DNA from: Eledone cirrhosa
Lineage: Eukaryota
DNA length: 33,935 nt
Assembly (NCBI GenBank): GCA_964016885.1
Contig: CAXHJY010000025.1
Span: 1 to 33,935, forward strand
Direction of reading: 5' to 3'
The position numbers were made by a program, and so were the translations under genes. The notes under the pieces are model-generated. The model had not been told where the DNA came from. It ran no database searches and saw only the letters and a list, made by a program, of their open reading frames with translations. Shown piece by piece: positions 11,866-33,104 of this stretch; within the stretch, counting starts at the first letter, position 1, and every line of letters starts with the position of its first letter.

Positions 11866-13954
11866 ATCATGTATAAATTATATACTGGGTGACTTAACCT
11901 GTTCTTACAGGATCACTGTGCTACCAACAACATCATAACATCTGAGCAAGCTGGTGGAAAGAGAGAGGTGTGGGGTTGCATAGATCACCTACTAACTAAT
12001 AAAATGATTCAAGAAAAAACAACAAAGAATCGCAGAAAAATGACTGTGGTGTGGCTGGACTATCAAAAAGCATTTGATAGTGTACCTCATGGGTGGATTG
12101 TTAAGGCTTTACAGTTAGCTAAAGTTCCACAACCATTGGTAGCTGCGGTTGAACGTCTGACCAAGAACTGGTACACCAATTTGATCCTTAGAGGTGAGAA
12201 GGAGCAAGTTAAGACCAGAAAGGCATCTTTCAGGGTGATAGCTTGTCAGTGCTACTCTTCGTTCTCTCACTAAATGCACTATCTTACCTACTCAGGGAAC
12301 ACGGTAGACAAAGAAGTGGGTCCAGAAGTATCTTCCATCTTTTCTTTGTTGATGACCTGAAGTTGTATGGGCCAAATATCAATGACATCAAGAAACAATT
12401 GGACCTCATTACACAATTTTCAACAGACATCAAAATTAAATTTGGTGAGTCCAAGTGTGCATATTTGGCAGTAAAACGTGGAAGAGCTGTGCCCTCCTCT
12501 AGAAATCTAGAGATGAACGGCCTGAAATACAACCTCTACAGTCAGGTGACAACTACAGATATCTTGGAGAATGTCAGATATGATGGATCCATAAATAAGG
12601 AGAGAACCAGAACTGAATACCCAAGAAGAGTAAAGAAAATATGGTCATCAGAACTGTCAGCGTACAACAAATACATTGCCCACAATACTTATGCTGTGCC
12701 AATTCTAACGCCAACATTTGGCCTACTGAACTGGTCATTGCAAGAGCTAAGTGAGATGGATGTTAGAACTCGCAAACTTCTCAGTATTACTGGGAACTTT
12801 AACATCAATGGTGATGTGGATAGGCTATACTTCTCACGCAAGGAAGGTGGCCGGGGTCTAAAATCCATATTAACATCATATGAGACCCGGATAGTAACAC
12901 TGAAGCAACATCTTCAACAGAGGAAAAAGGTTGGCAACCATCTTGCCCAGGTTTATGAGCATGAAAATAAAAATATCATTAGAATAGCCACTGATCTGGA
13001 AGAGAGATATGGAATAAAGCCTGATATAAATCTCTCACCCAGAAAAATCGGAAGATCCTATTCAATGTTCAAACAAGATGAAAAAAAAAAATTGTCCAAT
13101 TTACAGAAAAAGTTGTGCATGGATACTTGAGGCGTAAAACACAGACCATAGAGGGGATTAACCACTCAAAAAGCCTGGCATGGAGTTCCGACAAGTTTAT
13201 GACATCACACCTTGAGGGATATCTCTATGCAATACAGGAACAAGAACTCCCTACCAAATATCTGCTGCACAAAAGGGGAGGACCATCAGCTGACAATAAA
13301 TGTAGGCTATGTAAAACAAAGATCGAGGATGTAAGCCACATTGTTGCCAGCTGCGAAAGAATGTCATCTCGCTACTACCTCCCCATGAGACACGATGGGA
13401 TAGCTAGAACCATCTGGAACGCACTTCGGAAAACAAAATTAACAACAAACGAGGAAGAATATATTGAGACAGATGGCACTAAGGAATACTGGTGGAACCT
13501 GAAAATAATAACTGCCACCAAATTAAAGCACAACCGGCCTGATATTGTTGTTTGGGACTACACATTGAAAACGTGTTCTGTTGTGGAGATCAGCTGCCCA
13601 CTTGATGTAAACGTTGTCAGAAAAATACAGGAGAAGGAGGACATCTACGGACCATTGATGAGGAGTTTACAAATCCAGTATCCAAGATACACCTTTAGCT
13701 TCATACCCATCATTATTGGAGCTACGGGTTATATACCAACCCGCTTGGACCAAAGTATGACTGAACTTGGATTTGCAGACTAAGAGCGCAGCTCCCTAAT
13801 TCATAGTCTACAAATGGCTGCGATAGCTGGCACCTTCAAAATTTGCAAAACATTCTTGCGATTCAAGGGATGACAATTTCTTTTCTTATACAATCTTGCC
13901 ACCAGGAAGGTGGCCGGTCAAAAAAATATACTCGAAATTAAGAGAAAGAGATAA
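11866..13954 (+). mobile_element. 5'-truncated, frameshifted non-LTR retrotransposon with RT and restriction-like endonuclease (R4/Dong-like)
   Basis: WLDYQKAFDSVPH, LFFVDDLKLY, DRLYFSRKEGGRGL, CCHC knuckle CRLC..HIVASC, RHD, KHNRPDIVVWD..VEISCP. Split over ORFs 11968-12273, 12243-13130 and 13115-13783; reading continues past the stop to 13873. (CATA)n on both flanks. Confidence 0.93.
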
Positions 13955-14770
13955 CATACATACATACATACATGTTTGCGTGCATATAAACCTCAGCACA
14001 GTTTCCGTCTACTAAGTTTTACTCGCAAGACAATGGTCAGTGTGAAGCTACATTAAAGACACTTTCCCAATGAGAGGTACAATGAACCCTCAATTATCTG
14101 GTTGTCCACCCATTTCCAAAGTAATTTCAGCATGTATGAGTAAAGTCTTTTCAATATAGCTATTTATTTACAGAGGCAAGAAAAGGAGAATGTGTCTGTG
14201 TGTCTATCTGAGCGTGCGTGTAGTTTTGGGATCTCGCATAATGTGTCGTATGCAATGAAGAAAAAACGCAAGGAGCCATGGCCAATCGAGGCTAAACAAC
14301 AACAGCAGCATTACTACCACCACCACCACTATCACCAACAACAACAGTATAGCATTGGCATAGGATCACAAATATTAGGGTAGAGAACAATTAATTAACC
14401 TTTTCATGACAATATATCTAATGAAATACGTTCTATTTCAATTAATTAATGAACATTTTTGAGAGATTTACTAAAAGTAATAATTATTTCAAAATGTATT
14501 CGTGAGTGAATAATAATAATATAATAATATAATATTCGGTTTGTTTGCAAGCAAACAGCCTCAAACACTACGCCATCCTTTTCTTCTAGCGGTAGCTGAG
14601 AGAAAACAATCGACGATTGTTTCAGAGTTTTTTGCTCCTTATCAATATTGTGTATTCTCGTCACTGCTACCCACTCGAACTGCCGAGAATACATAGTATT
14701 CTCAAATGAATACATCGGCTGATTAGCCTCATTTGCATACCGAGCGATTTTATGGCCGACTTTGCCGAAG

Positions 14771-15087
14771 ATTAAAAAATAAAATTTGTTTCCACTCTTA
14801 ACATGGTGGATACCCAAACGTATTCGTGAGTGAATAATAATATAATAATAATATAATAATAACAATAATAATAATATAATATTATTAACATTCGGTTTGT
14901 TTGCAAGCAAACAGCCTAATAAACACCACGTGTTAGATGACTAACGTCATCCTTTTCTTCTAGCGGTAACTGAGAGAAAACAATAGACAATTGTTTCGAA
15001 GTGTTTTGTTCCTTATCGATATTGTGTATTCTCGTGTATTGTGTATCCACCATGTTAAGAGCGAAAGCAAATTTTGTTTTTTTTAAT
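14771..15087. mobile_element. Putative MITE with ~43-bp imperfect TIRs
   Basis: 14771-14813 is an inverted match to 15043-15087. The interior is partly duplicated at 14496-14661. Confidence 0.55.
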
Positions 15088-21487: not shown

Positions 21488-21611
21488 AGGAAAAAGTATG
21501 ACCCCGACGGCAGAGCTCAAGCCTTTTTCCTATTACCCACTCTACTACCCTAAGTATTGAGTACTCTGGTGCGTTATGGTCCATCTGGTTCCTTACCACA
21601 TTTCCTTCGTT
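21487..21611 (+). mobile_element. Short (TA)n-flanked insertion with an inverted 5' segment
   Basis: Same family as 23256-23464; 21487-21523 is inverted relative to the body. Confidence 0.75.
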
Positions 21612-21861: not shown

Positions 21862-21936
21862 TACATACATACATACTTACATTTAAATAAGTGCCGTACT
21901 AAGAGTGAGAAATGAAATTTCGTTTCATTCTATTCC
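21862..21936 (+). mobile_element. 3'-terminal fragment of the 466-bp family
   Basis: catacttacatttaa..gtgcc.tactaagagtgagaaatgaaatttcgttt matches the array end near 26220-26290. Confidence 0.8.
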
Positions 21937-21958
21937 ATATATATATATATATATATAT

Positions 21959-22385: not shown

Positions 22386-22440
<55 letters not shown>

Positions 22441-22449
22441 AATACTTAC

Positions 22450-22480
<31 letters not shown>

Positions 22481-22524
22481 CTAGATTTCTATTACATACA
22501 TAAATATATATATATATATATATA

Positions 22525-22787
22525 CTAGATTTCTATAAGAATATAACATCAATGATCTCAGCAAACAGGTGGGGTAGTTGGCCTTGATAAGCTTCAACCA
22601 AAGCGAAACAAGTCTTGTCGGCTTATCTCCCCTGTTTGCTGAGATCAAAGTGAGTGAATTTGTCACTAATTTAAAACAATAGCTTACGGTCTTCAAAATG
22701 CTTTTAATTAAGCATAAAGGGTATTGCAAAATACATTATATATACATCCATATATATATTGCTATTTCAGAGCTCCAATTCTAATTT
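22525..22787 (+). mobile_element. Distant solo relative of the 310-bp family
   Basis: Shares ttctataag, ggtcttcaaaatg, gctatttcagagc and the terminal ccaatt(t)ctaat with the 310-bp unit, in the same order. Confidence 0.75.
22553..22647 (+). ncRNA. Variant hammerhead with UUGAUAA core (U3-A8) on a long stem I
   Basis: A 17-bp perfect stem tgatctcagcaaacagg/cctgtttgctgagatca encloses UUGAUAA-GCUU caacca AAGC-GAAA-CAAG-UC. Confidence 0.65.
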
Positions 22788-22794
22788 TTATACA

Positions 22795-22826
<32 letters not shown>

Positions 22827-22827
22827 C

Positions 22828-22910
<83 letters not shown>

Positions 22911-22921
22911 CATAAATATAT

Positions 22922-22952
<31 letters not shown>

Positions 22953-22989
22953 CATACATATATATATATACATACATATATATATATAT

Positions 22990-23164
<175 letters not shown>

Positions 23165-23166
23165 TG

Positions 23167-23206
<40 letters not shown>

Positions 23207-23208
23207 TG

Positions 23209-23255
<47 letters not shown>

Positions 23256-23256
<1 letters not shown>

Positions 23257-23464
23257 TAGGAACCAGTAAGACCCCGACAGCTGAGCTCAAGCCGTTTCGA
23301 CGGCTAATTCTGGACTAAATGATTTAGTCCAGAGTTAGCCGTCGAAACGGCTTGAGCTCAGCTGTCGGGGTCTTACTGGTTCCTATTACCCACTCTACTA
23401 CCTCAAGTATTGAGTACTTTGGTGCGTTATGGTCCACCTGGTTCCTTACCACATTTCCTTCGTT
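23256..23464 (+). mobile_element. (TA)n-flanked insertion beginning with a 131-bp fold-back palindrome
   Basis: Arms 23256-23320 and 23322-23386, one mismatch, 1-nt centre. Confidence 0.85.
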
Positions 23465-23470
23465 ATATAC

Positions 23471-23593
<123 letters not shown>

Positions 23594-23839
23594 CATAAAT
23601 GTAAGTATGCATGTATACGTACATACATATATGTATACAGACGTACAGTAGCATGCACATATATATATATATATACATATATATATACATATGCATACAG
23701 GTACACATACATATATGCACGTATCAGTTTAGCAGCGCTAACGTCGCTTTGTTCGTTTGTAAACAAACTGAACAGCCTGAATTTATGCCATACGGTGTTA
23801 AGGCAACCACGTCACCTTTTTGTTCAACACTGACACAGG

Positions 23840-23884
23840 AACGATGTACTAGTTTCAAGCTTGTTAGCTATCATCAGCACCGTT
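23840..23884 (-). ncRNA. Type I hammerhead ribozyme, 466 family
   Basis: Reverse complement of the 25024-25068 motif. Confidence 0.88.
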
Positions 23885-24305
23885 TACCCATCTGCCAGAT
23901 AGTTGAACGTTCGAAAGTATATACTTTCCTTATGAAAATTAACGGCTGAACAGCCTAATTTGCATATTGAGTGAGTTAAATCGGTCAGGCATACCGAAAA
24001 CGATAAATTGAAACAAAATGAAAACGAAATTTCATTTCTCACTCTTAGTATGGCACTTACTTAAATGTAAGTATGCATGTATACGTACATACATATATGT
24101 ATACAGACGTACAGTAGCATGCACATATATATATATATATACATATATACATACATATGCATACAGGTACACATACATATATGCACGTATCAGTTTAGCG
24201 GCGCTAACGTCGCTTTGTTCGTTTGTAAACAAACTGAACAGCCTGAATTTATGCCATACGGTGTTAAGGCAACCACGTCACCTTTTTGTTCAACACTGAC
24301 ACAGG

Positions 24306-24350
24306 AACGATGTACTAGTTTCAAGCTTGTTAGCTATCATCAGCACCGTT
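24306..24350 (-). ncRNA. Type I hammerhead ribozyme, 466 family
   Basis: Reverse complement of the 25024-25068 motif. Confidence 0.88.
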
Positions 24351-25023
24351 TACCCATCTGCCAGATAGTTGAACGTTCGAAAGTATATACTTTCCTTATG
24401 AAAATTAACGGCTGAGCAGCCTAATTTGCATATTGAGTGAGTTAAATCGGTCAGGCATACCGAAAACGATAAATTGAAACAAAATGAAAACGAAATTTCA
24501 TTTCTCACTCTTAGTATGGCACTTACTTAAATGTAAGTATGCATGTATACGTACATACATATATGTATACAGACGTACAGTAGCATGCACATATATATAT
24601 ATATATACATATATATATACAAAAAGGTGACGTGGTTGCCTTAACACCGTATGGCATAAATTCAGGCTGTTCAGTTTGTTTACAAACGAACAAAGCGACG
24701 TTAGCGCCGCTAAACTGATACGTGCATATATGTATGTGTACCTGTATGCATATGTATATATATATGTATATATATATATATATGTGCATGCTACTGTACG
24801 TCTGTATACATATATGTATGTACGTATACATGCATACTTACATTTAAGTAAGTGCCATACTAAGAGTGAGAAATGAAATTTCGTTTTCATTTTGTTTCAA
24901 TTTATCGTTTTCGGTATGCCTGACCGATTTAACTCACTCAATATGCAAATTAGGCTGCTCAGCCGTTAATTTTCATAAGGAAAGTATATACTTTCGAACG
25001 TTCAACTATCTGGCAGATGGGTA

Positions 25024-25068
25024 AACGGTGCTGATGATAGCTAACAAGCTTGAAACTAGTACATCGTT
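25024..25068 (+). ncRNA. Type I hammerhead ribozyme, 466 family
   Basis: AACGGUG-CUGAUGA-U AGCU AACA AGCU U-GAAA-CUAG-UA/CAUCGUU. Stem I extends via CUGGCA/UGUCAG and GUUCAAC/GUUGAAC. Confidence 0.9.
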
Positions 25069-25489
25069 CCTGTGTCAGTGTTGAACAAAAAGGTGACGTG
25101 GTTGCCTTAACACCGTATGGCATAAATTCAGGCTGTTCAGTTTGTTTACAAACGAACAAAGCGACGTTAGCGCCGCTAAACTGATACGTGCATATATGTA
25201 TGTGTACCTGTATGCATATGTATATATATATGTATATATATATATATATGTGCATGCTACTGTACGTCTGTATACATATATGTATGTACGTATACATGCA
25301 TACTTACATTTAAGTAAGTGCCATACTAAGAGTGAGAAATGAAATTTCGTTTTCATTTTGTTTCAATTTATCGTTTTCGGTATGCCTGACCGATTTAACT
25401 CACTCAATATGCAAATTAGGCTGCTCAGCCGTTAATTTTCATAAGGAAAGTATATACTTTCGAACGTTCAACTATCTGGCAGATGGGTA

Positions 25490-25534
25490 AACGGTGCTGA
25501 TGATAGCTAACAAGCTTGAAACTAGTACATCGTT
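25490..25534 (+). ncRNA. Type I hammerhead ribozyme, 466 family
   Basis: Identical motif, +466. Confidence 0.88.
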
Positions 25535-25955
25535 CCTGTGTCAGTGTTGAACAAAAAGGTGACGTGGTTGCCTTAACACCGTATGGCATAAATTCAGGCT
25601 GTTCAGTTTGTTTACAAACGAACAAAGCGACGTTAGCGCCGCTAAACTGATACGTGCATATATGTATGTGTACCTGTATGCATATGTATATATATATGTA
25701 TATATATATATATATGTGCATGCTACTGTACGTCTGTATACATATATGTATGTACGTATACATGCATACTTACATTTAAGTAAGTGCCATACTAAGAGTG
25801 AGAAATGAAATTTCGTTTTCATTTTGTTTCAATTTATCGTTTTCGGTATGCCTGACCGATTTAACTCACTCAATATGCAAATTAGGCTGCTCAGCCGTTA
25901 ATTTTCATAAGGAAAGTATATACTTTCGAACGTTCAACTATCTGGCAGATGGGTA

Positions 25956-26000
25956 AACGGTGCTGATGATAGCTAACAAGCTTGAAACTAGTACATCGTT
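25956..26000 (+). ncRNA. Type I hammerhead ribozyme, 466 family
   Basis: Identical motif, +932. Confidence 0.88.
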
Positions 26001-26290
26001 CCTGTGTCAGTGTTGAACAAAAAGGTGACGTGGTTGCCTTAACACCGTATGGCATAAATTCAGGCTGTTCAGTTTGTTTACAAACGAACAAAGCGACGTT
26101 AGCGCCGCTAAACTGATACGTGCATATATGTATGTGTACCTGTATGCATATGTATATATATATATATATGTGCATGCTACTGTACGTCTGTATACATATA
26201 TGTATGTACGTATACATGCATACTTACATTTAAGTAAGTGCCATACTAAGAGTGAGAAATGAAATTTCGTTTTCATTTTGTTTCAATTTA

Positions 26291-27108
<818 letters not shown>

Positions 27109-27238
27109 CATATGTGAATATAGACATAGAATATTCGAAAATATTCTGTATGTTTATAATAAACATTTTGAAGACCTAATCGCTATAGAATAGAATACGT
27201 CACGTATTACAATTAGATTCTCGATAAAAGCAAGGGAA

Positions 27239-27281
27239 GTAATCTACGCGTTTCATTCTCGTTAGAAATCATCAGGACTAC
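27239..27281 (-). ncRNA. Type I hammerhead ribozyme, 310 family (second minus copy at 27549-27591)
   Basis: Reverse complement of the 27922-27964 motif. Confidence 0.88.
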
Positions 27282-27921
27282 ATATCCAGTGCTTTTATCG
27301 AGAATGACACAGCTAGAGACTTATAGAATACTTAGCTGTGTACAGGAACTGGTTTGAAAGAGCGGTTGCCGGTCCGGCAGAAATTAGAAATTGGAATAAA
27401 TGCTCTGAAATAGCGATATATATGTGAATATAGACATAGAATATTCGAAAATATTCTGTATGTTTATAATAAACATTTTGAAGACCTAATCGCTATAGAA
27501 TAGAATACGTCACGTATTACAATTAGATTCTCGATAAAAGCAAGGGAAGTAATCTACGCGTTTCATTCTCGTTAGAAATCATCAGGACTACATATCCAGT
27601 GCTTTTATCGAGAATGACACAGCTAGAGACTTATAGAATACTTAGCTGTGTACAGGAACTGGTTTGAAAGAGCGGTTGCCGGTCCGGCAGAAATTAGAAA
27701 TTGGAATAAATGCTCTGAAATAGCGATATATATGTGAATATAGACATAGAATATTCGAAAATTCTATGTCTATATTCACATATATATCGCTATTTCAGAG
27801 CATTTATTCCAATTTCTAATTTCTGCCGGACCGGCAACCGCTCTTTCAAACCAGTTCCTGTACACAGCTAAGTATTCTATAAGTCTCTAGCTGTGTCATT
27901 CTCGATAAAAGCACTGGATAT

Positions 27922-27964
27922 GTAGTCCTGATGATTTCTAACGAGAATGAAACGCGTAGATTAC
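27922..27964 (+). ncRNA. Type I hammerhead ribozyme, 310 family (further copies start at 28232, 28541, 28852, 29160, 29470, 29782)
   Basis: GUAGUC-CUGAUGA-U UUCU AACG AGAA U-GAAA-CGCG-UA/GAUUAC. 16-bp perfect distal stem at 27898-27913 / 27971-27986. Confidence 0.9.
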
Positions 27965-30038
27965 TTCCCTTGCTTTTATCGAGAATCTAATTGTAATACG
28001 TGACGTATTCTATTCTATAGCGATTAGGTCTTCAAAATGTTTATTATAAACATACAGAATATTTTCGAATATTCTATGTCTATATTCACATATATATCGC
28101 TATTTCAGAGCATTTATTCCAATTTCTAATTTCTGCCGGACCGGCAACCGCTCTTTCAAACCAGTTCCTGTACACAGCTAAGTATTCTATAAGTCTCTAG
28201 CTGTGTCATTCTAGATAAAAGCACTGGATATGTAGTCCTGATGATTTCTAACGAGAATGAAACGCGTAGATTACTTCCCTTGCTTTTATCGAGAATCTAA
28301 TTGTAATACGTGACGTATTCTATTCTATAGCGATTAGGTCTTCAAAATGTTTATTATAAACATACAGAATATTTTCGAATATTCTATGTCTATATTCACA
28401 TATATATCGCTATTTCAGAGCATTTATTCCAATTTCTAATTTCTGCCGGACCGGCAACCGCTCTTTCAAACCAGTTCTGTACACAGCTAAGTATTCTATA
28501 AGTCTCTAGCTGTGTCATTCTCGATAAAAGCACTGGATATGTAGTCCTGATGATTTCTAACGAGAATGAAACGCGTAGATTACTTCCCTTGCTTTTATCG
28601 AGAATCTAATTGTAATACGTGACGTATTCTATTCTATAGCGATTAGGTCTTCAAAATGTTTATTATAAACATACAGAATATTTTCGAATATTCTATGTCT
28701 ATATTCACATATATATCGCTATTTCAGAGCATTTATTCCAATTTCTAATTTCTGCCGGACCGGCAACCGCTCTTTCAAACCAGTTCCTGTACACAGCTAA
28801 GTATTCTATAAGTCTCTAGCTGTGTCATTCTCGATAAAAGCACTGGAATATGTAGTCCTGATGATTTCTAACGAGAATGAAACGCGTAGATTACTTCCCT
28901 TGCTTTTATCGAGAATCTAATTGTAATACGTGACGTATTCTATTCTATAGCGATTAGGTCTTCAAAATGTTTATTATAAACATACAGAATATTTCGAATA
29001 TTCTATGTCTATATTCACATATATATCGCTATTTCAGAGCATTTATTCCAATTTCTAATTTCTGCCGGTCCGGCAACCGCTCTTTCAAACCAGTTCCTGT
29101 ACACAGCTAAGTATTCTATAAGTCTCTAGCTGTGTCATTCTCGATAAAGCACTGGATATGTAGTCCTGATGATTTCTAACGAGAATGAAACGCGTAGATT
29201 ACTTCCCTTGCTTTTATCGAGAATCTAATTGTAATACGTGACGTATTCTATTCTATAGCGATTAGGTCTTCAAAATGTTTATTATAAACATACAGAATAT
29301 TTTCGAATATTCTATGTCTATATTCACATATATATCGCTATTTCAGAGCATTTATTCCAATTTCTAATTTCTGCCGGACCGGCAACCGCTCTTTCAAACC
29401 AGTTCCTGTACACAGCTAAGTATTCTATAAGTCTCTAGCTGTGTCATTCTCGATAAAAGCACTGGATATGTAGTCCTGATGATTTCTAACGAGAATGAAA
29501 CGCGTAGATTACTTCCCTTGCTTTTATCGAGAATCTAATTGTAATACGTGACGTATTCTATTCTATAGCGATTAGGTCTTCAAAATGTTTATTATAAACA
29601 TACAGAATATTTTCGAATATTCTATGTCTATATTCACATATATATCGCTATTTCAGAGCATTTTATTCCAATTTCTAATTTCTGCCGGACCGGCAAACCG
29701 CTCTTTCAAACCAGTTCCTGTACACAGCTAAGTATTCTATAAGTCTCTAGCTGTGTCATTCTCGATAAAAGCACTGGATATGTAGTCCTGATGATTTCTA
29801 ACGAGAATGAAACGCGTAGATTACTTCCCTTGCTTTTATCGAGAATCTAATTGTAATACGTGACGTATTCTATTCTATAGCGATTAGGTCTTCAAAATGT
29901 TTATTATAAACATACAGAATATTTTCGAATATTCTATGTCTATATTCACATATATATCGCTATTTCAGAGCATTTATTCCAATTTCTAATATATACATAT
30001 ATATACATATATACATATATATACATATATACATATAT

Positions 30039-31970: not shown

Positions 31971-32034
31971 GGAAGACATGATATGAAGGTGAAAAACACT
32001 TGTGGATAGTGCAGTTTTAAATCAACATATGAAA

Positions 32035-33104
32035 AGTTGGAAAAAGAATATCTAACTTATCTTCTAATAAAAACATCTTCGATGCTAACGCCAATTACTA
32101 TAATAACGCGCTTTCTAAAGCCGGCTATCCTTATAAAATCAAATATAATAACGAAACAAATTCTAGAAGATCTTACAGTAGAATAATTAATCATGATCAT
32201 TCCAATAACATTAATAAAAGACCTAGATACAAAAACATAATCTGGTATAATGCTCCTTTCTCCATCTCTATTAATAATATTATTCCTAAATTATTCTTTA
32301 GTGCCTTAAATAAATGCTTCCCTCCCTCACATATCTATAGTAAAATATTTAACAAATACACTATAAAATTTTCCTATTCGACATCCTCCAACATTTCCAA
32401 CATTATCTCTAAACACAACAATAAAATACTAAATATTAAATCTCTTCCTTCCAACACTGAATATCATAATAATAGTAATAGTACTCCCGACGTCATTGTA
32501 AACTCTAGGCTAATTTCTGCAAACCCAAATACAACGTCAAACACAACTTCACTAAATGTTCTTAATCCCATTCTAAATCAAGAAACTATTATTCCTATCG
32601 CAAATAACTTCTCCCAATCCAATTCCTTCTATAGATAACACTAGGTGACTCGTTAATAATCTCTCTAATCGCAATTGCAATTGCCCTGCTAAAAATAAAT
32701 GTCCTCCTCAACAACCATTGTCTTGATAAAAACTTAATCTACGAATGTAAAGTTATAACTGACACCAATTCCTTCACCTATTTTGGCTCCACTTCCACCT
32801 CCTTTAAAGCTCGTCTTTATAATCATCATTCGTCTTTTAAATACGCAACTTAAAAGAACCAACACGGCTCTCTCAGAACTCATATGGTCCTGAAAGACAA
32901 AAATATTAAATATAACATCTCTTGGAAAAAGGTTTCTTCTGCTTCTACATACTTGAACAGTTCTCTATCCAAGACTTGCAATCTCTGTCTAAATGAAAAA
33001 TTTACATTATATCTAATTTAGATTCTATAATAAATAGACGCACTGACTTGTTTTCTATCTGCTTGCATAAATTCCACAGATCTTTCCATAAAGTATACAG
33101 CTAA
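32035..33104 (+). pseudogene. 5'-truncated Penelope-like element: RT thumb/linker and C-terminal GIY-YIG endonuclease, frameshifted
   Basis: Manual translation: [103 protein letters not shown]. Confidence 0.88.

Follow-up and report, generated by a model that had tools for sequence, protein, structure and literature searches.

Metazoan non-LTR retrozymes are described as non-coding tandem units of 150-450 bp, each with one type I hammerhead and a self-paired RNA, which also occur as solo monomer derivatives and are associated with Penelope-like elements (PMC7229834; Li et al. 2026, bioRxiv 10.64898/2026.07.22.740005). According to the available text of PMC4209133, most metazoan type I hammerheads have a palindromic helix III of 1-2 bp and need dimers. 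How the RNA circles of animal retrozymes escape re-cleavage is left open in the available part of PMC7229834. Natural covariation of core positions 3 and 8 to U3-A8 has been reported together with in vitro activity of such ribozymes (Perreault et al. 2011, PMC3088659), and about 1,300 U3-A8 matches were found in Schistosoma mansoni (PMC4209133); the available text of PMC2920678 gives no rates for U3-A8. Finally, hammerheads with a large helix III are found in fungal and protist Penelope-like elements, and one tested example cleaves as a single ribozyme (PMC4209133).

We analyzed a stretch of 33,935 nucleotides from Eledone cirrhosa (hereafter the window), which is AT-rich and rich in microsatellites. 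We consider it probable, from sequence comparison, that the segment 22525..22787 belongs to an animal non-LTR retrozyme family whose unit measures about 316 nt, and that it is a solo genomic copy truncated at its 5' end. The family would be sister to the one that forms a 310-bp array at 27106..29990. Both the element class (animal retrozymes) and the U3-A8 core are already published. Compared with the metazoan retrozymes described in the available parts of these sources, the present family differs in sequence and has a U3-A8 core, and its copy in the window is truncated and single. Our literature search found no report of this U3-A8 family, of U3-A8 in a tandem retrozyme or of a cephalopod retrozyme, and the supplementary figures of PMC7229834 and PMC4209133, in which many invertebrate ribozymes are depicted, may hold cases of the former two. 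Somewhat unusual is the combination of a longer stem III, predicted to be foldable as a monomer, with a rival helix in which U3 takes part and which could turn the ribozyme off.

The hammerhead and its U3-A8 core

The segment bears what is, by its predicted fold, a real and well-formed type I hammerhead with its active-site layout intact. All parts lie on the + strand. The 5' strand of the extended helix I (22571..22583) comprises a G-rich helix (22571-22574, paired with 22627-22630), an internal loop (22575-22579) and the core-proximal stem I (22580-22583); the 3' strand (22620..22630) provides the pairs C22583-G22620, C-G, G-C and G22580-U22623. Core positions 3-9 read UUGAUAA at 22584..22590, as in the original prediction, with U3 at 22584 and A8 at 22589. 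Stem II (22591..22604) has four Watson-Crick pairs starting from G10.1-C11.1 and a loop of 6 nt (22595-22600). It is followed by G12 A13 A14 A15.1 (22605..22608) and by stem III (22608..22618), with the pairs A22608-U22618, C-G, A-U and A22611-U22615 and a 3-nt loop (22612-22614). The cleavage triplet GUC occupies 22617..22619, and both a descriptor scan and the Rfam HH9 alignment predict the cut after C22619. As expected for a type I hammerhead, UUGAUAA faces the GAA of 22605-22607 with positions 3 and 8 forming U3-A8, helices I, II and III close the core with 4, 4 and 4 contiguous pairs, helix I is open-ended, and the pair A15.1-U16.1 (A22608-U22618) is present together with an NUH triplet. 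The 6-nt loop 2 and the internal loop of helix I are both present and are candidate partners for a tertiary contact.

With Hammerhead_HH9 (RF02275, clan CL00010), of which model positions 1-77 were aligned, the ribozyme shares type I topology, a 4-bp stem II with a 6-nt loop, a stable stem III and a GUC triplet. It differs by its score (24.6 bits, E 0.00025 on 171 nt, for a cut-off of 52), a shorter proximal stem I and the variant core. The element's ribozyme is predicted to resemble HH9 in its working and is not an HH9 member. With E up to 1, a search of the whole window against Rfam returned 148 matches, none of them reaching its gathering score; nearly all were microRNA models on AT repeats, which we rejected, and none of the other hammerheads of the window was listed.

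Stem III, with 4-5 bp in this family, departs from the 1-2 bp of most metazoan type I hammerheads; the ribozymes of the 310-bp array and of a 466-bp array in the window fit that short-helix description, whereas the U3-A8 family does not (PMC4209133). With its 4 bp, stem III should allow a single ribozyme to fold unaided, in contrast to the palindromic helix of 1-2 bp in the 310 and 466 families. A stable helix III is a feature shared with the fungal and protist hammerheads, which, unlike the present segment, are located in pseudo-LTRs of coding elements of non-animals (PMC4209133).

Part of the element was present in 10 of the 15 listed sequencing runs, from seven studies, with a share above 0.2 in seven rows from four studies. 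No RNA run was listed as containing it, an outcome that is uninformative about expression. For comparison we used contigs from four runs (X1, X2, X3 and X7) of four studies and four organisms, with at least 80% likeness and differences shown from 5%; runs X8-X10, of small share, are outside these counts. This limit of likeness shuts out C3-G8 relatives that have diverged as far as the 310 family, and rare variants are lost from contigs. All four runs cover the core, and no other letter is listed at 22584 or 22589. The contigs that span it measure 186 nt with 3 differences (X2), 73 nt with none (X3), and 107 nt with 1 and 144 nt with 14 differences plus 2 gaps (X7), and one core-spanning contig is about 90% identical overall. 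Run X1 gives the deepest cover, yet its eight listed pieces include no core-spanning one; this run may also be close to the source and does not count as independent support. The original prediction regarded U3-A8 as a compensatory change, to be given up if the family consensus had CUGAUGA. All four runs keep U3 and A8, and the pair is, as judged from these contigs, a family trait and not a private mutation. That positions 3 and 8 of hammerheads pair is established, and the 3-8 Watson-Crick covariation is shared with other natural U3-A8 hammerheads (PMC3088659, PMC4209133). The Schistosoma motifs, however, are described in the available text of PMC4209133 as heterogeneous and mostly single matches to a minimal-hammerhead descriptor, whereas here U3-A8 is fixed in a tandem family whose ribozyme has full helices.

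Other helices of the ribozyme vary in a way that preserves pairing, although several of these sister variants rest on single low-depth contigs. Loose ends of contigs in X1 (5 contigs) and X3 (1) carry a stem II in which both partners differ in three of the four pairs. Two letters inserted behind 22612 together with 22613 T>C, present in a single X3 contig and a single X7 contig, give stem III a fifth pair. In an X3 loose end the fourth stem III pair passes from A-U to G-C (depth 2.4, possibly an error), and another shows UUGAUAA unaltered, with A-U in place of the pair G22580-U22623. Near the core, the position that changes most often is 22599, in loop 2. The nine substitution sites listed between 22553 and 22647 comprise three unpaired positions, three changes to G-U and three that break pairs (22571, 22636 and 22647, one contig each), the six paired sites lying in the long stem and the G-rich helix; the three common stem substitutions (22562, 22564 and 22646) all give G-U on the + strand. 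Selection on RNA structure, claimed before from the U3-A8 change, is backed by more covariation, in stems II and III, than had been seen.

Beyond helix I, two arms (22553..22569 and 22631..22647, + strand), defined by folding and by comparison with the 310 unit, form a distal stem of 17 Watson-Crick pairs (z about -7, 0/200 shuffles) that lies in register with the stem of the 310 unit. The 17-bp stem itself was correctly predicted; its description as fully replaced was not, 7 of 16 pairs being identical to those of the 310 stem and 9 changed on both sides, with none broken. It is perfect only in the window copy, because relatives in all four runs mostly have U at 22562 (G-U); G at 22564 is the majority letter in two of the four. 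The 7 identical pairs are not significant alone (p 0.08), so that the case for a homologous stem depends on where it lies, and identity by itself would be compatible with wholesale replacement. In an X3 contig, insertions behind 22643 and 22646 make the base of the 3' arm more like the 310 sequence. Together with position, these insertions favour a distal stem that descended in place. Double changes can also originate at the DNA level, by template switching from one arm to the other, and the distal stem is for this reason weaker evidence for selection on RNA than stems II and III.

Competing folds

Without constraint, the RNA of the segment is predicted to bury the core in a fold 6.3 kcal/mol below the active one, and the minimum-energy fold sequesters the core at all transcript lengths tested from 22623 on. 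In the competing helix, 22583-22586 (including U3) pair with 22609-22612, the 5' strand of stem III, and the gap between inactive and active folds falls from 6.3 to 4.2 kcal/mol when U3 is barred from pairing. The sister haplotype that lengthens stem III also extends the competing helix, to 7 Watson-Crick pairs (read by hand). Stem III is itself near-palindromic and is predicted to self-dimerize at -10.1 kcal/mol.

These folds would be expected if the family were a catalytically silent DNA repeat, with hairpins made and repaired at the DNA level, through template switching or through conversion from arm to arm, and an RNA trapped in a rod-like fold. The exact complementarity of the 5' strand of stem III to 22583-22586, as an inverted duplication would yield it, and the three rare variants that break pairs also fit such a repeat. 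However, the same model misfolds the two canonical ribozymes of the window, with gaps of 7.4 (310) and 8.3 kcal/mol (466), and misfolding as such is therefore uninformative for this element. In close relatives from four organisms every invariant position of the core is intact, and the covariation of stems II and III is explained by the ribozyme fold only. The G-U pairs produced on the + strand by 3/3 common stem variants point in the same direction, weakly, since this would happen 1 time in 8 by chance. A silent repeat is in our opinion unlikely, and a retrozyme with an intact ribozyme fold is preferred.

Within this retrozyme lineage, control of cleavage might have moved from the dimer dependence of the 310 family to a conformational switch, U3-A8 having been selected for an off-state that protects the circle. 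This is a tentative proposal, to which we give a rather low probability. Equally doubtful is its structural side, suggested by the folding model, according to which the long stem III would permit monomer action and U3 would pair with the 5' strand of stem III to produce the off-state. Alternatively, the competing helix may be a by-product of a stem III that arose through inverted duplication.

If the predictions hold, the locus brings in a further family of animal retrozymes, present in several species, in which U3-A8 is fixed and stem III is monomer-foldable. With its C3-G8, dimer-type sister alongside, it would constitute a natural pair for testing the effects of 3-8 identity and of stem III length, and cleavage and circle stability could be compared between the two. 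With a monomer-competent ribozyme, dispersed solo copies could also cleave read-through transcripts of the host.

Extent, kinship and origin of the element

The segment keeps 261 nt of the unit of about 316 nt and lacks about 55 nt at its 5' end, as deduced from homology to the 310 unit and from an end-to-start joint: in one contig each of runs X2 and X7 (two of the four runs compared), 22785 is connected to 22525 across 55 letters, which implies a tandem unit of about 316 nt. Tandem organization with a single type I hammerhead in every unit of 150-450 bp, characteristic of non-LTR retrozymes, is thus present at the level of the family. The copy in the window has a single hammerhead, as opposed to an active non-LTR retrozyme locus in the definition given in the available text of Li et al. 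2026, and it is consequently a monomer derivative. No hammerhead core was found on the minus strand of 22525..22787. Like retrozymes, the segment lacks protein-coding ORFs and long terminal repeats: frames of at least 100 aa that overlap it are repeat-derived only, and its self-comparison revealed no direct terminal repeat. We rejected an interpretation of the 17-bp inverted repeat as a MITE, because homology extends beyond both arms.

The left flank (22389..22524) is rich in (TA)n, by inspection and repeat content, and the right flank (22789..23258) consists of (TA)n/(TACA)n repeats; the 310 array also stops at the equivalent point of its unit, in TA-type repeats similar to this right flank. 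Both flanks being TA microsatellite, no target-site duplication of the segment was identified. The first 13 nt of the element (22524-22536) recur at 22480-22492. The 5' junction appears stuttered over 22446-22536, where a TA-rich block and these 13 nt are present twice.

Kinship with the 310 unit, proposed earlier from flanking blocks and the 3' end, is confirmed most clearly by the 3' 100 nt (22688..22787, + strand), which are 74% identical (E about 1e-12, a score attained by 0/500 shuffles). This common module, delimited by alignment and folding, contains a hairpin (22698-22715) that differs from its 310 counterpart by a C-G versus a U-A pair. Upstream of core position 3, an ungapped, core-anchored comparison of 53 nt gives 27/53 identities (1/20,000 shuffles), and 18/44 when a shared 9-mer is removed (306/20,000 shuffles); the 466 family, used as a control, gives 14/53. 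The 9-mer (22531..22539, + strand) is identical in both units, and in both it is located 53 nt upstream of core position 3. By unanchored local alignment the 5' half alone is not significant (75/500 shuffles). The 3' match and the anchored upstream match together make the whole unit a diverged relative of the 310 unit. No homology to the 466 unit was found (150/300 shuffles), and similarity to the family of a minus-strand motif near 14645 is marginal (7/300 shuffles).

In run X1 the summed contig depth over 22696-22731 is about 15-fold that of the ribozyme. This part of the 3' module seems to be common to further repeat families, and it may be the part recognized for mobilization.

On the model of published retrozyme biology, tandem copies would be transcribed and cut once per unit, a host ligase such as RtcB would circularize the units, and the circles would be reverse-transcribed into (TA)n targets by enzymes of Penelope-like elements. 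From the window copy no unit circle could arise, since it has a single cut site; one cut of a read-through transcript is conceivable. In the available text of Craig et al., inverted 5'-truncated copies are reported for Penelope-like insertions, with a preference for (TA)n in the Naiad clade. Both arrays of the window resemble such insertions, with an inverted upstream copy and ends in TA repeats.

A closer link to Penelope-like elements is conceivable, in which the segment would be the detached pseudo-LTR of an autonomous element instead of a free-standing retrozyme unit. U3-A8 hammerheads were found via a Schistosoma Penelope-like element (PMC4209133), retrozymes are reported as pseudo-LTR-derived (Li et al. 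2026), and possible debris of a Penelope-like ORF lies about 9 kb away. Nevertheless, a pseudo-LTR would be expected next to an RT plus GIY-YIG ORF, and no such ORF adjoins the segment, where coding frames are only repeat-derived and the nearest candidate debris is at 32033-33050. Moreover, contigs in two runs connect the end of the unit to its start via 55 letters, the sister family is organized purely in tandem, and the helices are unlike the minimal type with a long helix II and no helix III described in the available text of PMC4209133. We regard a pseudo-LTR origin of this copy as very unlikely, and retain a solo retrozyme copy as the better explanation.

Position of the cut and other features of the window

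Two GUC triplets are present in the ribozyme, ending at 22614 and 22619. The first, which forms the loop of stem III in our model (22612-22614), had been taken as the cut site, with a mismatched stem I. Such a register would entail a stem III of 1-2 bp, like that of the 310 unit, and a crippled or dimer-requiring ribozyme. Cleavage after C22614 would mirror the four-letter spacing that follows GAAA in the 310 and 466 units, and a shifted helix of 7 pairs can form 2 nt from that site. This register fails the stem I test of the descriptor scan, for which, with full stem I test, N17 = C22619 is the sole solution for this core, adjoined by four contiguous stem I pairs (chance level of the scan, 0.19 hits per shuffled window in 100 block shuffles). 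The HH9 alignment places the cut at 22619 as well, and constrained ensembles reach -44.3 kcal/mol for 22619 versus -40.6 for 22614, a difference of 3.7 kcal/mol. The distance from cut site to distal arm would be 16 nt for 22614, against 11 nt for 22619 and 12 nt in the 310 unit. Finally, 22613, the invariant U16.1 of the 22614 register, varies in relatives and would be abolished as such by the insertion haplotype with 22613 T>C. Descriptor, HH9 register, energies and sister variants all favour C22619 as the predicted site, and cleavage after 22614 appears extremely improbable. The original prediction had mis-registered cleavage site, stem III and stem I by five nt, and the stem I mismatch that it reported beside GUC is an artefact of this shift, stem I being contiguous beside C22619.

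The descriptor scan retained 16 motifs in the window: nine in the 310-bp array, five in the 466-bp array, one on the minus strand at 14645 and the one in 22525..22787. The 310-bp array has seven hammerheads on the + strand and two on the minus strand, with a C3-G8 core and a palindromic stem III of 1-2 bp. It is inverted head to head at 27756/27757, and in its ribozyme a U-U mismatch occupies the base of stem II, as in the axolotl HHR_Amex2 (PMC7229834). The 466-bp array (23592-26291) contains five canonical C3-G8 type I hammerheads, three on the + strand and two on the minus strand, with a palindromic stem III; its upstream part is inverted, it ends in TA repeats, and an end fragment is also found near 21890-21940.

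On the minus strand, 14612-14645 and about 14980-15019 form a hammerhead-like pair, 374 nt apart and 81% alike, apparently unrelated to the element. One has C at position 4 and the other a mismatch beside the cut site. Both carry U3 and A8, so that U3-A8 occurs in two of the four hammerhead families of the window.

The debris at 32033-33050 (+ strand) is a frame-shifted ORF with a weak GIY-YIG match (E 0.057), and its look-alikes in the Atlas have PF26215 HTH_animal in 40-52% of members; it resembles the C-terminal half of Penelope-like elements. When residues 1-135 of frame 32033-32635 were searched against longer proteins, none of 944 candidates qualified as a homologue at E 0.001. A near-perfect fold-back with arms of about 60 bp lies between TA repeats at about 23259-23384, and a related sequence without the fold-back at about 21490-21610. 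A broken ORF of a non-LTR retrotransposon, with RVT_1 and zf-RVT matches, is located at 11893-13783 on the + strand.
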